Sequence record: OP870143.1
Source of the DNA: Escherichia phage vB_Eco_F22
Direction: 5' to 3' (one strand)
Length of the DNA: 64,000 nucleotides
Shown here: in pieces, positions 11,263 to 26,477 of the stretch
Position numbering within the stretch: position 1 is the first letter of the stretch
Layout of the letters: every line of letters begins with the position of its first letter
Program-made: the position numbers and the translations under genes
Notes under the pieces: generated by a model
The model's database searches: none
Seen by the model: only the letters and a program-made list of their open reading frames with translations
Told to the model about the DNA's origin: nothing

Positions 11263-12438
11263 ATGAACCAGATACCTCAGCACACACTTAGTGATGAACA
11301 ACTCATGCGTGAGTATGACCGTATTCAGGCCAAAGCCTTTCTCGGACGTAGTGCAGCGTTTTTTGGTTCATTGCTGTGTAGTCTTAAGTTCTCATGGAAA
11401 CGTGAAGACTGTCCTACCGCATGTACTGATGGGATAGAACTGCATTTCAACCCAGACTTCTTTATCTGGATGTGTCCTGATGCAAGAGAAACAGTATTAA
11501 TGCACGAGCTATGGCATGTGGCATATCTACATGACATCCGTCGTGGAAGCCGTGACCCAGAAGTCTGGAACCAGGCTTGTGACCACTTCATTAACCTTCA
11601 GTTAGAAGAAGATGGTTACAAGTTCACTGGTATCGACGAAGGTATTTGTAAAGACCCTCAATATAAAGGATGGGTCGAAGAAGACATCTACGATGACCTG
11701 ATGAAGAACCCTCAGAAAAGGCAGAAGCCGTCAGGGGGTGCTGGAGCAGGTCTTGCTGGCGACATGAAATCCCCCACTTCGGGACAGTCCCAGGGTGCTG
11801 TCGTCAATAACGTAGTACGTGCAATGCAAAGCCAGAAGATGGCTGGTGGACAGATGCCTGGTAAAGGTGCTGGTCGTATGGAAGAGGTCATTACCCAATT
11901 CCTTAAACCAGTGGTTCCTTGGCAGGAAGTTCTGATGAACTTCTTTACCGACATTGATGACACACATTATACGTGGGCCAGACCTAATCGTCGTTACACT
12001 GACATCTATCTACCTTCACTGGAAGATGATGAAGGACGTCTACGTCACTTAGCCTACTTTGAGGATGTATCTGGTTCCATCAGTAGTGCTGACTCTCTGC
12101 GTTTTAACTCAGAGGTTGCCTACGTTAAGAGCCAGTTCAATCCTAAGAAGATGTCCCTAATTACCTTCGACGATATTATCCAGGAAGAAATAGACATCAC
12201 TGAAGAAGATACTTTTGAAGAGATTAAGATTACAGGTCGTGGTGGTACAAACCTTGAACCAGTACGCGAATGGATTATTAAGAATAAGCCAACCGCTGCA
12301 ATCATATTCTCCGATATGTATGTTCGTCCAATGGAAGAATTGCCATTTGATATTTCCATCATCTGGTGTGTTCTGAATAATCCCAATGCTACCGTACCTT
12401 TTGGGGAGGTAGTTCATATCCCTAAAGGAATGAAATAA
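11263..12438 (+). CDS. VWA-domain protein with N-terminal HExxH metallopeptidase-like region (DUF2201-like partner of the MoxR ATPase)
   Basis: HELWHVAYLH motif; gene pairing with upstream AAA+ ATPase; 391 aa. Confidence 0.5.
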   Translation: MNQIPQHTLSDEQLMREYDRIQAKAFLGRSAAFFGSLLCSLKFSWKREDCPTACTDGIELHFNPDFFIWMCPDARETVLMHELWHVAYLHDIRRGSRDPEVWNQACDHFINLQLEEDGYKFTGIDEGICKDPQYKGWVEEDIYDDLMKNPQKRQKPSGGAGAGLAGDMKSPTSGQSQGAVVNNVVRAMQSQKMAGGQMPGKGAGRMEEVITQFLKPVVPWQEVLMNFFTDIDDTHYTWARPNRRYTDIYLPSLEDDEGRLRHLAYFEDVSGSISSADSLRFNSEVAYVKSQFNPKKMSLITFDDIIQEEIDITEEDTFEEIKITGRGGTNLEPVREWIIKNKPTAAIIFSDMYVRPMEELPFDISIIWCVLNNPNATVPFGEVVHIPKGMK

Positions 12439-12944
12439 TGGTTGTTAATGGTAATTCTCTATATCGCTCATCTCAGTTGCTGGATGTTCCAGACCATAAG
12501 GTATCTGAACATGGTGTAAGCTATGGATTAGGTGAAGCTGGCTACGATATTCGTATCAAACAGGACATTACCTTCTATCACTTATTTGGGTTGATTCCAA
12601 TGGTGAAGGTCGTTGATGGAAATCAAGTATCACGCCATTTCGGTAAGTTCACATTGGCTTCAGCAATTGAGAAGTTCAACATGTCCCCTTCCTGTGTAGC
12701 TATCGTTCACGATAAGTCTACATGGGCAAGACGTGCATTATCAGTGTTCAATACCGTAATAGAACCAGGATGGAAAGGGTATTTGACTCTTGAACTGGTC
12801 TATCATGGTCGTAAGAAACTACATATCCCGGCTGGTGCTGGGATAGCTCAAGTATTATTTCATCTGGTTCAGGAACCTGCTAATTACAACGGCAAGTATC
12901 AGAACCAGGAAAATCAACCAGTAGCTGCAAGAAGCAGTAAATAA
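12438..12944 (+). CDS. dcd: dCTP deaminase / dUTPase-superfamily enzyme
   Basis: GEAGYDIRI, KSTWARRAL, EPGWKGYLTLEL and GAGIAQVLFH motifs typical of the Dcd family. Confidence 0.65.
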   Translation: MVVNGNSLYRSSQLLDVPDHKVSEHGVSYGLGEAGYDIRIKQDITFYHLFGLIPMVKVVDGNQVSRHFGKFTLASAIEKFNMSPSCVAIVHDKSTWARRALSVFNTVIEPGWKGYLTLELVYHGRKKLHIPAGAGIAQVLFHLVQEPANYNGKYQNQENQPVAARSSK

Positions 12945-12953
12945 GGAAAACTC

Positions 12954-13163
12954 ATGTCAGTATTTCAAGTAACTCATGCAACCTCAGATGTACGTTTAAC
13001 CATTAATGCTGCAAATGTAGTTGCAGTGGAACAGATTCCACTGTCTGATTGCGCTCGTATTACACTTGTAAATGAAGGTACTTTGGATACCAAAGAAAGC
13101 TATCGTTCAGTACGTAATTACCTGAAGAAAGCTCTTGCTCCTGCAAGCAAAGATGCTGAGTAA
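12954..13163 (+). CDS. Hypothetical protein (69 aa)
   Basis: ORF followed by terminator-like hairpin. Confidence 0.45.
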   Translation: MSVFQVTHATSDVRLTINAANVVAVEQIPLSDCARITLVNEGTLDTKESYRSVRNYLKKALAPASKDAE

Positions 13164-13236
13164 GTAGCTGCCTAAATAGCCCAGCATAGTTGGGCTATTT
13201 GTGAAGAAACTAACTCAACCCCACATAGGAACTATC

Positions 13237-13497
13237 ATGGAATCTTTAGCAGCAATCCTTATTCTGTTATTTGCACTAGCTGTATACCTTATCCCTACCA
13301 TTATTGCTTTTGCACGGGGCCATGCCTCTAAGTGGGGAATTGGTGTACTCAACATCGTATTAGGCTGGTCTTTGGTCTTCTGGGTAGTAGCACTGATTTG
13401 GTCACTGTCTAATAAAGGACAGTCTCAGACTACAATCGTTAACGTTGGTAGTGGGAACCAATACAACGTGTCTCAAACGAGCCAGTCTGATAAGTAA
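13237..13497 (+). CDS. Small membrane protein resembling the superinfection-immunity (Imm-like) family; track start 13201 is GTG
   Basis: LIPTIIAFARGHASKWGIGVLNIVLGWSLVFWVVALIWSL resembles the Imm_superinfect signature; ATG 13237 has AGGA RBS. Confidence 0.5.
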   Translation: MESLAAILILLFALAVYLIPTIIAFARGHASKWGIGVLNIVLGWSLVFWVVALIWSLSNKGQSQTTIVNVGSGNQYNVSQTSQSDK

Positions 13498-13571
13498 CTA
13501 ACCTAAGCATCATTGCATAGTGGTGCTTGTGGAAGTTACTTTCAGCTCATTGCTTATCCATCTCCTAATCC

Positions 13572-13599
13572 AAGCCCACCTAACCCGTGGGCTTTTTTA
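13572..13599 (+). terminator. Intrinsic terminator
   Basis: Hairpin AAGCCCAC-CTAACCC-GTGGGCTT followed by TTTTTAA. Confidence 0.65.
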
Positions 13600-13614
13600 A
13601 TTACAGGTACTCTT

Positions 13615-13998
13615 ATGTCAAACAGACAAAATGGTAAGTCTATCTTATATGGACTGGACTTAAGTAAACTGGAACAAACTGCAATGCTTACTTTAGGTAA
13701 AACTATACATGACCAAGTAGAGAATGAAATAGAATCAGATGTTTATGCAGCAATGCAAGCTGCTATTCTGAAAGGATGGACTAGTAGATCATTTAATGTT
13801 TTCCCATACATCCCTCCTGAACCTCATCTGAAATCTAAGGTAGACCGTATCATAGATAAGTTCTGGCTTAGTCCTTGCTATGACGAAATGCATCTTTACC
13901 TGGCTCAAATACAAAAGAATCCACGTACTAAGGATTTGTTCAAAGGCAAGAGCACTACCCATCATTACCCTTGGTATAGAAGAGGTAGTAAATACTAA
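13615..13998 (+). CDS. Hypothetical protein (track ORF 13513..13998, trimmed to the first Met after the terminator hairpin)
   Basis: ORF; hairpin plus T-run at 13572..13599 sits inside the longer track ORF. Confidence 0.4.
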   Translation: MSNRQNGKSILYGLDLSKLEQTAMLTLGKTIHDQVENEIESDVYAAMQAAILKGWTSRSFNVFPYIPPEPHLKSKVDRIIDKFWLSPCYDEMHLYLAQIQKNPRTKDLFKGKSTTHHYPWYRRGSKY

Positions 13999-14441
13999 TG
14001 CGTATCCCATTCCTAAGAAAAAGGGAACGAAATCCTGTTCTTTATAATAAAGGCATAGAGGATGAGTACGAACTTAACCGTAAGGCCCGTTCCTACGCAG
14101 CAAAATTATTAATGGGGGCTACCAACCCTGATAGATTACTGGACTTTGTTTTCGAACAAGTCTTTATCATATACAGCTTAGCTATGTCTGCTGGTTCACA
14201 AGAAGTAAGTGATAAGGCAAGAGATGCTCTCTGTATGCTCCGTAAAGAGTATGAAGCCCTCATGTATGAAGACTTGTACTCCTTTAAAAAAGAAACCGCT
14301 GTAGCGTGTTCTGTGGCTCTTACTGAAGGTATAGCAGTATTACAGGAACTACCACGTAGTGAGTTTAAACTGGTATATGTTCAGGCCAAGAGGATTACAG
14401 AAAGCCGTAGTGGTATTACCAACTATCTAAGGTCATTCTAA
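13998..14441 (+). CDS. Hypothetical protein (147 aa)
   Basis: ORF with ATGA-type overlaps on both sides. Confidence 0.5.
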   Translation: MRIPFLRKRERNPVLYNKGIEDEYELNRKARSYAAKLLMGATNPDRLLDFVFEQVFIIYSLAMSAGSQEVSDKARDALCMLRKEYEALMYEDLYSFKKETAVACSVALTEGIAVLQELPRSEFKLVYVQAKRITESRSGITNYLRSF

Positions 14442-15385
14442 TGATTAAGGCAACTGTCATTGCAGATTCCGTTCATCATGCAACGGGTACTCGTATTACT
14501 ACCTTTGAATTGGTCTATCCCCGATTCATTCACAGTGAGTTTATGACCCACCGTGTATTCAACCGAAATGCTTCAAGTAGTCGTGCTATCCCTACTTCTA
14601 AGTTCATCGAACAAGTTCGTAATGAACCAGTGATGCCAAGTCACTGGGGCAAGAACCAGAAGGGTATGCAGGCATTTGAGGAACTGTCCGAAGACCAACG
14701 TAGTGATGCAATCTTTATCTGGAACCAGGCTGCGTCAAGTGCTGCTACCTATGCGGAAATGCTTCGTCGTGGACAAGTTCATAAGCAGATTGTTAACCGT
14801 ATTCTGGAACCATTCACACATATCCGTGTAGTGGTAACTTCAACTAGCTGGGCTAATTTCTATGGCTTACGTGACCATGAAGATGCCCAACCAGAGATTC
14901 GTGAATTAGCTCAAGCAATGCGTAAGGCTCATAATGAAAGCACTCCAAGAGCACTCCCACAAGGGGAATGGCATTTACCGTATATTGCTCATATTGATCG
15001 TGTCGGGGCTTATAATTACTGCAAACATCAGCGAATTACTCGTGATGAACCAAGTAGTGAAGAAGTGTATGGCTTACTTCTTAAGGTAAGTGCTGCTCGT
15101 TGTGCTCGTGCTTCTTACAACAATTTTGAAGGCCGTCCTTCTACTATTGAAGAAGACTTAGGATTGTTTGCTAAGTTAGTAGAGAACCAACCTATTCATG
15201 CATCCCCTACAGAACACCAGGCAACTCCTATGCTGTTCGGTGATAAGTTCATTAACAACCAGAACCCATTAACCTGGGAACAGGGTGTTACTTCAATGGA
15301 TCGTGAAGGTAATCTGTATTCAGGTAACCTGTTAGATTTCATCCAATTCCGTAAACTAATCCCCGGAGAAACAATTACAGAATGA
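14441..15385 (+). CDS. thyX: Flavin-dependent thymidylate synthase ThyX-like
   Basis: THRVFNRNASSS fits the ThyX RHRx7S signature with one substitution; 314 aa; adjacent to dCTP deaminase. Confidence 0.5.
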   Translation: MIKATVIADSVHHATGTRITTFELVYPRFIHSEFMTHRVFNRNASSSRAIPTSKFIEQVRNEPVMPSHWGKNQKGMQAFEELSEDQRSDAIFIWNQAASSAATYAEMLRRGQVHKQIVNRILEPFTHIRVVVTSTSWANFYGLRDHEDAQPEIRELAQAMRKAHNESTPRALPQGEWHLPYIAHIDRVGAYNYCKHQRITRDEPSSEEVYGLLLKVSAARCARASYNNFEGRPSTIEEDLGLFAKLVENQPIHASPTEHQATPMLFGDKFINNQNPLTWEQGVTSMDREGNLYSGNLLDFIQFRKLIPGETITE

Positions 15386-15618
15386 AACGTTTAGCTATCC
15401 AAGCCCTGTTTATAAGTATCATCCTGGTTCTGGAATTTGTATTTGCACTGCATGGTGCACAGAGCCTAGAAGAGATGTTCTTCGTAGTAGCCCGTTTTTC
15501 TGCATGTGTTCTTAGCTTATGGTGTGTGTATTACTATGCACGCGATTATGTAGCCATCAAGGAACAGGATGATGCTAAGGAACGTCTATTACAATTCGTA
15601 GAACAGAATCGTAAGTAA
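15382..15618 (+). CDS. Small membrane protein (78 aa)
   Basis: ORF with hydrophobic helices; terminator at 15624. Confidence 0.45.
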   Translation: MKRLAIQALFISIILVLEFVFALHGAQSLEEMFFVVARFSACVLSLWCVYYYARDYVAIKEQDDAKERLLQFVEQNRK

Positions 15619-15623
15619 ACCTA

Positions 15624-15650
15624 AGACCTCCTCCGGGAGGTCTTTTTTTG
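15624..15650 (+). terminator. Intrinsic terminator
   Basis: Hairpin AGACCTCC-TCCG-GGAGGTCT followed by TTTTTTTG. Confidence 0.75.
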
Positions 15651-21024: not shown

Positions 21025-21086
21025 TAGCCTGTTCAAATGCCCTCACTTATAATAAAGTGAGGGTAAATTTGAAGAGGAAATGTACT

Positions 21087-21482
21087 ATGAGTAGTGTATA
21101 TCGTGTAAACCGTAAGGCTACTGATGAAGACATCATTCGAATGAATGCTGTTGGATTGTCTCTGGCAACCATTGCTAAAACATTGGGTGTTCACCCAACA
21201 ACCGTGACCTTACGGTTACGTTCTTTAAACATTGAACCAGCCGACACACGTCGGACGTTCATGGAGAATGTACTCCGTCCATTACCAACCCATGTGGCAG
21301 ATTGGCTATCAGAACAAGTTGGTCCTGCTTATGAGATTCGTTCATATGTAAGGGACTTGATTCTGGAGGCATATAATAATCGCCACCTTAACCAAGAGAG
21401 TGAGCATGACAAGTTCATCCGTTTGTACGCTGGAAAGAACCGAAGCCTGGTTCAAGAAAGCAGTACCGAATCCGACGAGTAA
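21087..21482 (+). CDS. Putative HTH DNA-binding protein (track ORF 21057..21482)
   Basis: LSLATIAKTLGVHPTTV helix-turn-helix-like segment; GAGGAA RBS before ATG 21087. Confidence 0.45.
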   Translation: MSSVYRVNRKATDEDIIRMNAVGLSLATIAKTLGVHPTTVTLRLRSLNIEPADTRRTFMENVLRPLPTHVADWLSEQVGPAYEIRSYVRDLILEAYNNRHLNQESEHDKFIRLYAGKNRSLVQESSTESDE

Positions 21483-21858
21483 GAACATTAGTACCCAGGT
21501 GGGCTGTCACCTGGAAGAAGTAGCAGAGATGCTTAATGCCCTCACTAACGCTGACCCAGAGTTAGCTAGTAAGATGGGCTTCCTAAGTGAAGCCATTGAC
21601 CACGTAGGTAACCTCATCAAAAAGAATGGGGGTATTGTGGTCAAAGACCGTGTGGAACTGTTGGATGCTCTGGCTGATCAGATTGTTACAGCAACTGGCA
21701 TCGGTACTTTCCTTGGGATGAATGTCCCTGGAGCATTGGCTGAAGTCAATCGCTCAAACTATTCTAAGTTCGAAGATGGAGAACCCATCTTCAATGAGAA
21801 CAAGAAAGTCATGAAGGGGAAAGACTATACGCCACCAGACCTGAGTAAATTTATCTGA
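21400..21858 (+). CDS. MazG-like NTP pyrophosphohydrolase candidate (start uncertain; overlaps upstream gene by 83 nt)
   Basis: HLEEVAEM and ELLDALADQIVTATGIG resemble MazG EExxE and helix motifs. Confidence 0.4.
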   Translation: MSMTSSSVCTLERTEAWFKKAVPNPTSKNISTQVGCHLEEVAEMLNALTNADPELASKMGFLSEAIDHVGNLIKKNGGIVVKDRVELLDALADQIVTATGIGTFLGMNVPGALAEVNRSNYSKFEDGEPIFNENKKVMKGKDYTPPDLSKFI

Positions 21859-22000: not shown

Positions 22001-22024
22001 TAACCCTCTACGGAGGGTTTTTTA
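22001..22024 (+). terminator. Intrinsic terminator upstream of the helicase gene
   Basis: Hairpin AACCCTC-TACG-GAGGGTT followed by TTTTTAC. Confidence 0.7.
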
Positions 22025-23897: not shown

Positions 23898-26477
23898 ATG
23901 CGTTACATCACCTCTCAGGATACTGGCAAGTATCCTATTGCTATCCTCGGTCATCAAATCCGAAGGGAGGAGATGATTAAAACCTACCTGCTGCCTTATG
24001 ACCTAAGCATGGAAGATTTCATCTTCCTTGAACTTCATTCTGCTCCCGGTAAGAAGAAGACTCCTGCAAGGGAGATTAAAGAGTTCATTCGGCAGGAACT
24101 ACAGCAAGTACTGGATGATGCAGAGACTCAGTACATTATATGTACCGATTCTGACTACTTTAAGATACTGACTAAAGAAGCTAAAGCAGAGGCTAACCTC
24201 GGCTATGTTTGTGACTCAGTATGGGGTAAGCAGAAGGTTATCTATACACCCAGTTACAGACAGGTCTTTTATGACCCACCTGTAGTGAAAGCCAAGATTG
24301 CTCAGGGTATGGATGCATTACTTAACCACATTCGTGGACAGTATGCTGAACCAGGACAGGGAATCATTGAGTTTGAAGCCTATCCAGATACGCCTGAAAA
24401 GATTAAAGCCTGGTTAGACCAGTTGCTTGAGATGAATAAGCCTCTGGCTATAGACATCGAATCCTTCGGTTTAAAGCACTATAACGCTGGTATAGGAACG
24501 ATTACGTTCTGTTGGAGTAAGACACAAGGCATAGCCTTTAATGTGGACTACGAGCCGATTAAGGGGGCTACTGAAGCTCCTTATGGGCGTATCAACAGGA
24601 ACGATGTTGTTCGTAACCTATTACGTGAGTTCTTCATTAAGTACACACAGCGGCAGATGTATCACAACATTAGCTATGACGTGTACATACTTATCTATCA
24701 GTTATTCATGGATAATCTGATTGATACGGAGGGCTTACTGCATGGCATGGAAATCATGCTGCGTAACTGGGACTGTACTAAGTTAATCACATATCTGGCT
24801 ACTAACAGTTGTGCTGGCAATCACCTTAGTCTTAAAGACCAGGCTCAGGAGTATGCTGGTAACTATGCTCAGGATGATATTAAAGACATTCGTCTTATTC
24901 CTAATGAGCAATTGTTACGCTACAACCTCATTGATGGTTTGTGTACCTGGTACACCTATGAGAAGCACTGGGATACTCTCATTGCTGATGACCAACTAGA
25001 TGTTTACAACAACATCTTTAAGCCAGCCTGCGAAGATATTATCCAGATGCAACTTACCGGTATGCCCATGAATATGGATACCGTTAACCAAGTAGCTAAG
25101 GAGATGGAAACTGACAGGAACCAGGCTCTGAAAACTATTCGTGAGTCTAAGCTCATGAAGAATTTCACACTGATGCTTCGTCAGGAATGGGTAGACGATA
25201 AGAATGCTAAGCTTAAGAAGAAGCAGGTAACATTGGCTGACTGTGACATTGAGTTTAATCCTAACTCCGGTCCACAATTACAGAAACTGTTATTTGATTA
25301 TATTGGCTTACCGGTTCTTAGCCTTACTAAGAGCAAGCAACCTGCTACTGACGGCGACACTATTAAAGCACTGCGTACACATACGCAGAGTGAAGATGTT
25401 AAGGAACTGCTCAATGCACTTATCGACTATAAACTCGTGGATAAGATTATCACTAGTTTTATACCAGCTTTCAGGAATGCCCAACCGGGGCCAGATGGCT
25501 GGCACTACCTATTCGGCAACCTCAATCTGGGAGGCACAGTATCAGGACGTCTCTCAGCGTCTGAACCTAACCTACAGACCATCCCCAGTGGTTCCAAATA
25601 TGCCAAGAAGATTAAGAAATGCTTCGAAGCACCACCAGGCTGGATATTTTGTGGACTGGACTTTGCAAGCCTTGAAGACCGTATCTCAGCTTTAACTACG
25701 AAAGACCCTCAGAAACTTAAGGTGTATACCGATGGTTATGATGGGCATAGTCTACGTGCATATGCTTACTTCGGTGAGCAGATGCCAGACATTGTAGATA
25801 CAGTTGAGTCAATCAATTCTATTCAGACGAAGTACAAGCACTTGCGTAGTGATTCTAAAGCCCCAACCTTCTTGCTTACCTATGGTGGCACGTATATGGG
25901 CTTGATGAAAAACTGTGGCTTCTCGGAAGAGAAAGCTAAGACAACAGAGAAACGTTATCACGATCTCTATGTAGTTAGTGATATGTGGGTTCAGGCTAAG
26001 CTAGACGAAGCTGCCAAAACTGGTTATGTAACTGCTGCATTTGGTTTGAGAGTGCGTACTCCTTTACTGGCTCAGGTATTACGTGGGACATGTAAGACTC
26101 CATATGAAGCAGAAGCTGAAGGTAGAACTGCTGGTAATGCCTTGGGGCAAAGCTGGTGTCTACTGAATAACCGTGCTGGTTCAGAGTTTATGCGTAAAGT
26201 CAGAGCCAGTGAGTTCAGATTAGATATACGTCCTAGTATTCACATTCATGATGCTCAGTACTTCATGATTCGTGACAACATGGATACCTTGCAGTACACG
26301 AACAAGCATTTGGTTGAAGCCGTTAACTGGCAAGACCATCCTGATATTGCTCATCCAGAAGTTGGTTTGGGTGGGGAACTATCCTTGTTTTACCCAACGT
26401 GGGCTAACGAGATTGAGATTCCAAATCACGCTACCCCAGAAGAAGTTAATCAAATAATTCAAAAGGCATTCGCATGA
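23898..26477 (+). CDS. Family A (Pol I-type) DNA polymerase with 3'-5' exonuclease domain
   Basis: Exo motif LAIDIESFGL; polymerase motif A RLSASEPNLQTIP, motif B KAPTFLLTYGG, motif C HIHDAQ; 859 aa. Confidence 0.85.
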   Translation: MRYITSQDTGKYPIAILGHQIRREEMIKTYLLPYDLSMEDFIFLELHSAPGKKKTPAREIKEFIRQELQQVLDDAETQYIICTDSDYFKILTKEAKAEANLGYVCDSVWGKQKVIYTPSYRQVFYDPPVVKAKIAQGMDALLNHIRGQYAEPGQGIIEFEAYPDTPEKIKAWLDQLLEMNKPLAIDIESFGLKHYNAGIGTITFCWSKTQGIAFNVDYEPIKGATEAPYGRINRNDVVRNLLREFFIKYTQRQMYHNISYDVYILIYQLFMDNLIDTEGLLHGMEIMLRNWDCTKLITYLATNSCAGNHLSLKDQAQEYAGNYAQDDIKDIRLIPNEQLLRYNLIDGLCTWYTYEKHWDTLIADDQLDVYNNIFKPACEDIIQMQLTGMPMNMDTVNQVAKEMETDRNQALKTIRESKLMKNFTLMLRQEWVDDKNAKLKKKQVTLADCDIEFNPNSGPQLQKLLFDYIGLPVLSLTKSKQPATDGDTIKALRTHTQSEDVKELLNALIDYKLVDKIITSFIPAFRNAQPGPDGWHYLFGNLNLGGTVSGRLSASEPNLQTIPSGSKYAKKIKKCFEAPPGWIFCGLDFASLEDRISALTTKDPQKLKVYTDGYDGHSLRAYAYFGEQMPDIVDTVESINSIQTKYKHLRSDSKAPTFLLTYGGTYMGLMKNCGFSEEKAKTTEKRYHDLYVVSDMWVQAKLDEAAKTGYVTAAFGLRVRTPLLAQVLRGTCKTPYEAEAEGRTAGNALGQSWCLLNNRAGSEFMRKVRASEFRLDIRPSIHIHDAQYFMIRDNMDTLQYTNKHLVEAVNWQDHPDIAHPEVGLGGELSLFYPTWANEIEIPNHATPEEVNQIIQKAFA

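Follow-up and report, generated by a model that had tools for sequence, protein, structure and literature searches.

This study investigated three nucleotide-metabolism genes of Escherichia phage vB_Eco_F22 (sequence record OP870143.1), from which a stretch of 64,000 nucleotides, hereafter the window, was analysed. The genes correspond to open reading frames (ORFs) on the plus strand at 12438-12944 (168 amino acids), 14441-15385 (314 amino acids) and 21400-21858 (152 amino acids when counted from its GTG), whose products are predicted to be a dCTP deaminase (Dcd), a flavin-dependent thymidylate synthase (ThyX) and a MazG-like nucleoside triphosphate (NTP) pyrophosphohydrolase, respectively. 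A preliminary description of this DNA, drawn from the letters alone, had taken them as a cluster that remodels the pyrimidine deoxynucleoside triphosphate (dNTP) pool, and had supposed that the imperfect motif of the ThyX-like protein, THR in place of RHR, might indicate a different substrate and possibly a modified base. We observed that the peculiarity of the locus lies elsewhere, in a ThyX for which THR appears to be the regular signature of a very large subfamily and in which a helical segment of the canonical enzyme appears to have been moved to near the C-terminus.

Gene order at the locus

The window belongs to a Gamaleyavirus, one of the N4-like Schitoviridae, and the 4-kb stretch around thyX and dcd is 98% identical to Escherichia phage E20, with 88-92% nucleotide identity to other Gamaleyavirus genomes (G7C-like, PhAPEC7, Bp4, IME11 and the BASEL phage Bas96). 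The GC content of the window ranges from 0.37 to 0.47 and is about 43% overall, which is lower than that of E. coli. The gene order matches that of N4, starting with an AAA ATPase (gp24), a vWA/metallopeptidase protein (gp25), the dCTP deaminase, small genes, gp28, gp29 and gp30, and continuing through further small genes, rIIA, rIIB, gp35, gp36, a helicase, gp38 and the DNA polymerase. Compared with N4 (YP_950504 for the dCTP deaminase, YP_950508 for gp30 and YP_950514 for gp36) and with E20, PhAPEC7, G7C and Bas96, the window agreed in gene content, order and orientation, with nothing substantial differing, and dcd, thyX and the MazG-like gene are kept together across N4-like phages. The orthologues carry the RefSeq names 'dCTP deaminase' and 'FAD-dependent thymidylate synthase' (FAD, flavin adenine dinucleotide).

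The distance from dcd to thyX is 1.5 kb, so that the proximity of these two genes, as earlier described, was confirmed. The word cluster is generous, as four small genes and a terminator-like hairpin lie between them and the MazG-like gene follows only about 6 kb beyond thyX, past rIIA and rIIB. A consensus scan of the plus strand placed terminator-like hairpins at 13572..13594, on the boundary of the dcd and thyX units, at 15623..15644, after thyX and a small ORF of 78 amino acids, and at 22002..22019, after the MazG-like gene, and a terminator is annotated at the equivalent PhAPEC7 site in each case. Because these hairpins separate the three genes, dcd, thyX and the MazG-like gene make up three successive units on the same strand, which is a loose grouping within conserved N4-type synteny and not a dedicated operon.

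A ThyX subfamily with a probable segment transposition

The 314-residue product of 14441..15385 (plus strand), an orthologue of N4 gp30, scored 52.6 bits against Pfam Thy1 (cut-off 24.8), with only profile positions 60-190 covered, and matched PHROG 85 'thymidylate synthase' at E=4.4e-115. Its AlphaFold2 (AF2) model was of high confidence (predicted local distance difference test, pLDDT, 94.5), possessed the ThyX fold and returned structure matches to ThyX only, which agrees with the earlier ThyX-like call. An identity as a UMP methylase of the PolB type was considered and rejected, since its similarity to PolB does not exceed that to true ThyX; in the search of the family profile against Protein Data Bank (PDB) sequences, the UMP/dUMP C5-methylase PolB of polyoxin biosynthesis (4P5A) was the weakest ThyX match listed, at E=0.0059.

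The canonical RHR(X)7S motif is absent from the window protein, which displays T36-H37-R38-(X)7-S46 instead. With a profile built from 61 diverse homologues, family residues 19-48 aligned to residues 61-90 of Thermotoga maritima ThyX (the PDB chain numbering of which equals the native numbering plus 12), such that the motif region THRVFNRNASSSR (residues 36-48; 14546..14584, plus strand) corresponds to R78-H79-R80 ... S88-G89-R90. The THR triplet itself (14546-14554) falls on R78-H79-R80, just as had been read from the letters, and S88 and R90 are the counterparts of S46 and R48. Among the 61 members H37 and R48 were invariant and T36, R38 and S46 were conserved in at least 90%. Additionally, in 80 genome loci, which are homologues from bacterial and archaeal assemblies found by a search seeded with a nine-sequence alignment, alignment with hmmalign gave threonine at position 36 in 79 and both S46 and R48 in all 80. 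Judged from these sequences, THR is to be regarded as a conserved signature of a very large ThyX subfamily rather than as a degenerate or phage-specific defect.

This subfamily is extensively dispersed: clustering at 50% identity gives 5,264 clusters at E<=0.001, and 2,866 of them reach E<=1e-30. It was found in 1,033 phage records, including ICP1, rV5-like, phi92-like, PAK_P1-like Pseudomonas and phiCbK-like Caulobacter phages, and the annotated phage records listed are almost always named thymidylate synthase. It also occurs in bacteria of the candidate phyla radiation (CPR) and in Eremiobacterota, with many Eremiobacterota and Saccharibacteria assemblies represented. In one Saccharimonadales locus the genes for ribosomal protein L1 (rplA), a THR-subfamily thyX, dcd and thymidylate kinase (tmk) stand in a row, and on an Eremiobacterota chromosome a THR-subfamily thyX lies beside ilvB-like and ilvC genes. 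Over the 80 loci, a low-sensitivity phmmer search detected Dcd-like neighbours in six and Tmk in one, counts that are anecdotal only. Two of the assemblies deserve separate mention. A Roseococcus sp. metagenome-assembled genome (MAG) contig of 296 kb (NZ_CBDDFJ010000021.1) harbors Dcd, permuted ThyX and MazG-like homologues within about 9 kb, and this stretch may be an N4-like prophage, or phage DNA mis-binned with a bacterial assembly. In the MAG 'archaeon isolate PL23a_bin.95', a 69,347-bp contig encodes a ThyX 86% identical to that of the window and a Dcd matching at E=1.6e-108, and mis-binning of a coliphage genome into this archaeal MAG is almost certainly the reason.

The second feature of the subfamily concerns the order of its parts. 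When the family profile was searched against PDB sequences, three segments of the hidden Markov model aligned to T. maritima ThyX in non-collinear order: family positions 19-48 to native residues 61-90, family positions 95-171 to about 123-201, and family positions 212-258 (...kvSvarcArvSY...lHaSPaEHq) to native residues 20-61 (...SAVRAARVSF...HETPFEH; chain residues 32-73). Residues 205-260 of the phage protein (...KVSAARCARASY...HASPTEHQ; 15053..15220, plus strand) would thus represent the canonical N-terminal helices, T. maritima residues of about 20-60 including S30, H53, E58 and H59. In T. maritima ThyX (TM0449; 1O26, 1KQ4) the segment with S30, H53 and E58 lies between strands 2 and 3, whereas in the phage enzyme it stands near the C-terminus, and the secondary structure of the AF2 model has the two N-terminal strands joined by a tight turn.

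The arrangement was further examined by re-permutation, in which residues 205-260 were excised and inserted between residues 12 and 19, with a shuffled insert as the control for the window protein. Re-permutation brought the Pfam Thy1 score of the window ThyX from 52.6 up to 68.8 bits, and the coverage of the profile extended from 60-190 to 13-190, with 49.0 bits for the shuffled control; against TIGR02170 the score rose from 55.3 to 72.7 bits (control 51.5). Five distant members, from Saccharimonadales, Eremiobacterota, Calothrix, Komagataeibacter and Nanoarchaeota assemblies, gained 12.5 to 17.2 bits with the same extension of coverage each, bringing the members with an increase to six of six. 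Hence the helical segment carrying S30, H53, E58 and H59 appears to have moved from its canonical place to near the C-terminus throughout the subfamily, and we infer that residues 205-260 are equivalent to it in three dimensions. No description of a permuted ThyX was found in the literature searched on ThyX permutation and on the ThyX motif in phages, and no solved structure of a THR-subfamily member was found in the profile search against PDB sequences. The rearranged segment order is a real peculiarity of the phage ThyX, which the preliminary description had missed and which goes beyond current annotation.

Some homologues reach 550-650 amino acids (P0129, P0146, P0161, P0183, P0214, P0217, P0233 and P0235), and their extra length was considered as a functional clue from fusion partners. 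That explanation was dropped, as the additional sequence consists of inteins with HNH or LAGLIDADG endonuclease domains, inserted either shortly ahead of SEFMTHR, around residues 26-32, or within HASPxEH, around residue 257. Such insertion points fit both motifs being functionally critical sites.

With reference to the active site, the profile alignment showed that many T. maritima residues are kept in the phage enzyme, namely H79 (as H37), R80 (R38), N85 (N43), S88 (S46), R90 (R48), R147 (R120), N169 (N139) and R174 (R144) and, within the relocated segment, S30 (S225), H53 (H253), E58 (E258) and H59 (H259). Those corresponding to the dUMP-binding or activating positions and to the flavin/folate site (S46, R48, R120, R144, H253 and E258) are invariant or nearly so. 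Other T. maritima residues are replaced, with Thr for R78, Ser (or Ala elsewhere in the family) for R74, Glu for Q75, Thr (or Ser) for N163, Thr for R165 and Asp for T. maritima H178, and the equivalent of Y91, assigned by adjacency, is an invariant Ala49. The phage enzyme also has about 90 residues more than T. maritima ThyX, with new invariant positions. The subfamily-specific invariants that have no canonical counterpart are H114-K115, H178, N296, Q302 and R304, with W177 conserved in at least 90%, and one may speculate that some of them stand in for the lost functions of R78 and Y91. In the 2003 structures of T. maritima ThyX, R78 reportedly contacts the phosphates of FAD and dUMP. The tyrosine is not universal, since a Phe takes the place of Y91 in C. 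glutamicum ThyX. In the T. maritima enzyme R174 activates dUMP, S88, R90 and Y91 have been proposed to help methylene transfer, and the Y91A variant slows the methylene-transfer step more than 100-fold (PMC8316439).

The immediate neighbours of thyX were also inspected. Upstream lies a gene for an N4 gp29-like protein of 147 amino acids (13998..14441, plus strand, from the ORF list and sequence), which matched PHROG 9867, a family of unknown function, at E=3.9e-87 and gave no match in the Pfam scan; its stop and the thyX start share 1 nt, which suggests translational coupling. Downstream, the hydrophobic 78-residue ORF (15382-15618) overlaps thyX by 4 nt, so that thyX is seemingly coupled on both sides, and a role with ThyX is possible for these two products, for example as a flavin reductase partner. 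Between dcd and thyX, 13201-13497 encodes a membrane protein resembling the superinfection-immunity protein Imm of T4 (Pfam Imm_superinfect, E=9e-17), for which the PhAPEC7 annotation states that N4 has no counterpart.

The MazG-like protein and the dCTP deaminase

The third gene encodes a predicted MazG-like all-alpha NTP pyrophosphohydrolase of 150 amino acids (21406..21858, plus strand), as supported by PHROG matches, by motifs and by N4 gp36, its orthologue, which is also 150 amino acids long and is 74% identical over the full length. The protein matched PHROG 671 'nucleotide pyrophosphohydrolase' at E=2.5e-36 and PHROGs 12019 and 2144, both 'MazG-like', at E of about 1e-5. Numbered from the ATG at 21406, the residues E37, E38, E41, D87 and D91 of the acidic motif EExxE ... 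LLDxLAD were invariant in 22 homologues, as was E113. The NCBIfam scan returned no match for this protein, and a search of its family profile against the PDB yielded nothing significant, the top match being syntaxin-6 at E=0.0029, which is coiled-coil noise. The family assignment made earlier for 21400..21858 is supported by PHROG 671 and the acidic motifs, and its start needs correction. The gene probably begins at ATG 21406 rather than at the GTG of the ORF (21400), as indicated by the conserved N-terminus, by a ribosome-binding site of the GAGAG type and by how long N4 gp36 is. From this start the gene overlaps the upstream gp35-like helix-turn-helix gene (21057-21482) by 77 nt in another frame. 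The RefSeq product of PhAPEC7 has 113 amino acids and would be without the invariant EExxE, and some public records probably have a mis-annotated start.

The place of this protein in pyrimidine metabolism can be read in two ways. It may stand outside any route from dCTP to dTMP and serve as an NTP pyrophosphohydrolase with a house-cleaning or regulatory task, be it the removal of aberrant dNTPs, a shift in the balance of the dNTP pool or the breakdown of alarmone or defence nucleotides, with the dUTP step left to host Dut or to Dcd, and we consider the chances of this to be evenly poised. E. coli has its own Dut, and the gene is separated from thyX by about 6 kb and lies in another terminator-delimited unit, by the helicase and polymerase genes. 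In phiAxp-3 the counterpart is grouped under 'DNA replication' (PMC4837373). The sequence similarity to DR2231 of D. radiodurans (2YEU), a MazG-like all-alpha enzyme specific for dUTP, is not significant (E of about 0.2-0.25), which also favours a place outside the route. DR2231 and the phage protein are of similar size, both have acidic metal-binding motifs, and their AEVxRxNxSK motifs are similar. Against such a place, ALAEVNRSNYSK of the phage protein resembles VFAEVHRANLSK of DR2231; moreover, the Roseococcus contig holds homologues of all three genes within 9 kb, and the three are kept together across N4-like phages. For the MazG-like and CYTH triphosphatases scattered across jumbo phages, degradation of NTPs carrying unmodified bases has been proposed (PMC7824862). 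A dUTPase role should accordingly not be the default reading, and for the window protein we regard that role as rather unlikely.

As for the first gene, the 168-residue product of 12438..12944 (plus strand), orthologous to the N4 dCTP deaminase also by its RefSeq entry, scored 58 bits against Pfam DCD (cut-off 27, E=1.5e-15) and matched PHROG 1663 'dCTP deaminase' at E=3.5e-59, and its top PDB sequence matches were the dCTP deaminases 3km3 and 4dhk. It fell under the cut-off of the NCBIfam equivalog TIGR02274 (77.3 vs 92.8 bits). The start of dcd shares 1 nt with the stop codon of the vWA/metallopeptidase gene upstream. By BLASTP, S94, R98 and E119 correspond to the catalytic S111, R115 and E138 of the E. 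coli enzyme, the numbering of which is self-consistent. The catalytic motifs also align with those of 3km3, 4dhk and 4xjc, and the GKYQ motif of the C-terminal lid is present. Together with E. coli Dcd (1XS1) and the Burkholderia and Anaplasma enzymes (4DHK, 3KM3), the phage protein shares the dUTPase-like fold family, the catalytic Ser/Arg/Glu and the C-terminal GKYQ; compared with these cellular enzymes it is about 25 residues shorter at the N-terminus. The Dcd-family call of the preliminary description is upheld by the Pfam and PHROG scores and the catalytic residues, and with little doubt the predicted product is a dCTP deaminase. A plain dUTPase was rejected because the catalytic Glu is present.

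Whether the phage Dcd also cleaves dUTP is a separate matter. A bifunctional dCTP deaminase-dUTPase, like those of M. jannaschii and M. tuberculosis, would pass dUMP straight to ThyX with no free dUTP, and we hold this as a tentative possibility. The Dcd enzymes of M. tuberculosis are bifunctional. In line with such a function, the phage protein is short (168 amino acids) and matches dUTPase profiles too (Pfam dUTPase, 26.5 bits, above the cut-off of 22), the M. tuberculosis Dcd entries 2qxx, 2qlp and 4a6a, as well as 4xjc, are among its matches, and the orthologue is labelled 'dCTP deaminase dUTPase' in some GenBank records. On the other hand, the closest PDB matches (3km3, 4dhk) were deposited as dCTP deaminases only, and mono- and bifunctional enzymes cannot be told apart by sequence alone.

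A probable thymidylate supply and the modified-base question

Taken together, we consider that the three genes are probably conserved nucleotide-metabolism genes of the N4-like replication (middle) region, which would boost the supply of dTTP for a genome of about 43% GC. In such a route, Dcd, in which the family and the catalytic Ser-Arg-Glu were recognized, would deaminate dCTP to dUTP; hydrolysis of the dUTP to dUMP would fall to host Dut, to Dcd, should it have dUTPase activity, or to the MazG-like pyrophosphohydrolase; the permuted ThyX, which exhibits the fold and most of the substrate-activating residues, would methylate dUMP to dTMP with FAD, NADPH and methylene-tetrahydrofolate; and dTTP would be completed by host kinases. 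We hold with good confidence that the phage ThyX should synthesise dTMP, for which the gene contexts in cellular genomes and the phage literature give indirect but consistent evidence, and we see an even chance that it does so as a member of a large, structurally uncharacterised class of permuted ThyX missed by curated equivalog models.

Our data is consistent with previous findings, since dCTP deaminase, Thy1-type thymidylate synthase and NTP-PPase have already been listed for N4-like phages (PMC4837373), and roseophage metabolomics linked dCTP deaminase and thymidylate synthase to a conversion of C to T in phages of lower GC than their host (PMC11981692). The earlier suggestion that the pyrimidine dNTP pool is remodelled (dCTP to dUTP to dUMP to dTMP) is thus supported by the gene calls and matches the N4-like annotation in these two reports, and profile similarity was present for Dcd, ThyX and MazG alike, in the last case through PHROG and not Pfam. 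The gene set is already known and ordinary, a standard dTTP-supply module of N4-like phages annotated in GenBank and treated in several genome papers, because the orthologues of the N4 dCTP deaminase, gp30 and gp36 carry the same public annotation.

The idea that a THR-type ThyX acts on another substrate fared differently. It would hold that the enzyme belongs to an undescribed class of flavin enzymes with a different product or substrate, such as C5-modified dUMP, dCMP or UMP or another C5-modified pyrimidine nucleotide, and that a modified pyrimidine in the DNA aids resistance to restriction-modification (RM) systems, including those of types I and III. The opening steps of the known phage pathways of thymidine hypermodification are indeed of the same kind, with a dCTP deaminase, a dUTP pyrophosphatase and a thymidylate-synthase homologue (bioRxiv 10.1101/2025.03.26.645540; PMC8989533). 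Those pathways, though, use a dUMP hydroxymethylase of the ThyA family, followed by 5-HMUDK and aGPT-Pplase, whereas a ThyX fold is found here. The annotation of the whole PhAPEC7 genome, a close relative, lists no methyltransferase, glycosyltransferase, 5-hydroxymethyluracil (hmU) kinase or similar gene, and no dedicated modification enzyme (ThyA-type hydroxymethylase, 5-HMUDK, aGPT-Pplase, glycosyl- or methyltransferase) was detected when the ORFs between 10.2 and 26.5 kb of the window were scanned. The threonine is regular in the subfamily, which adjoins dcd and tmk in a cellular chromosome, that of a member of the Saccharimonadales, and the equivalents of the dUMP-activating R90, R147 and R174 are invariant, all of which speaks against a change of substrate.

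Restriction data from relatives point the same way. Phages of the Vequintavirinae type encode full-length THR-subfamily members (41.7% identity in JeffSchatz and 40.8% in a relative of rV5), and these phages have been described as 'exceptionally sensitive to RM systems' (PMC8594841). The N4-like phiAxp-3 has the same type of enzyme, a Thy1-type thymidylate synthase of 303 amino acids with 54% identity to that of N4, and BlpI digestion of its DNA gives two fragments and EagI digestion four (PMC4837373). Within the window (1-64000) short palindromes are strongly depleted, with GATC counted 20 times against about 195-241 expected, GCGC three times against 141 and CGCG eight times against 141; of the 64 six-base palindromes, 19 never occur, and the total for all of them is 564 against 1,054 expected by a zero-order model. 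EcoRV has 10 sites in the window. Such avoidance of type II palindromes implies DNA that is exposed to restriction, as expected if it is unmodified and not masked. We therefore set the modified-base idea aside as highly improbable.

As a separate observation on the word counts, CAGCAG is over-represented in the window (137 against 42 expected), and its strand bias follows gene orientation, with 6 on the plus and 49 on the minus strand in 1-36000 and 75 on the plus and 7 on the minus strand in 36001-64000. On the coding strand CTGCTG is frequent and CAGCAG is rare, which could be due to codon usage or to avoidance of type III (EcoP15I) sites in one orientation.

Several points weigh against an ordinary dTMP-forming route. 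The phage ThyX is without the first Arg of RHR and has Ala at the position of T. maritima Tyr91, its 55.3 bits lie well below the cut-off of the NCBIfam thyX equivalog TIGR02170 (87.9), and no published assay of a permuted-subfamily enzyme was found in the literature searched. The MazG-like protein had no Pfam match above threshold (PRA-PH, E=0.026, 15.4 bits vs a cut-off of 21.3), and its AF2 model, built with 22 fairly close homologues, was poor (pLDDT 51), with four long helices predicted unreliably. The three genes do not form one operon. Furthermore, sites of types I and III show no avoidance in the window (EcoKI 8 against 8.4 expected; EcoP1I, AGACC, 125 against 117 on both strands), and the Gamaleyavirus Bas96 and N4 are reported to resist RM systems without a known genome-protection mechanism (PMC11990801, PMC8594841). 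As these sites are undepleted, site avoidance does not explain the RM resistance of the relatives and some protection exists, and nothing ties this protection of Gamaleyavirus to thyX.

The polymerase gene at 23898-26477 is an uninterrupted ORF of 859 amino acids, and in PhAPEC7 it is split by an intron with an HNH endonuclease. Family A DNA polymerases of N4-like phages have been reported to carry an N-terminal domain resembling uracil-DNA glycosylase (UDG) in which the catalytic residues are lost (bioRxiv 10.1101/2025.03.26.645540), and this is relevant because the phage Dcd would produce dUTP. Pfam did not detect a UDG-like domain in the window polymerase and reported only DNA_pol_A at residues 432-752.

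In summary, THR in place of RHR should not be taken as the mark of a degenerate or neofunctionalised ThyX, as it belongs to a subfamily that is missed by the NCBIfam equivalog and only partly covered by Pfam. Because ThyX serves both as an antibacterial drug target and as a model of flavin-mediated methylene transfer, the permuted enzyme would be a cheap and informative target for structural and kinetic work. The apparent existence of a transposed ThyX subfamily without R78 and Y91, two residues regarded as important in the canonical enzyme, holds a modest interest for ThyX enzymology and annotation models, and the biological reading of the locus in this N4-like phage is left unchanged by it.

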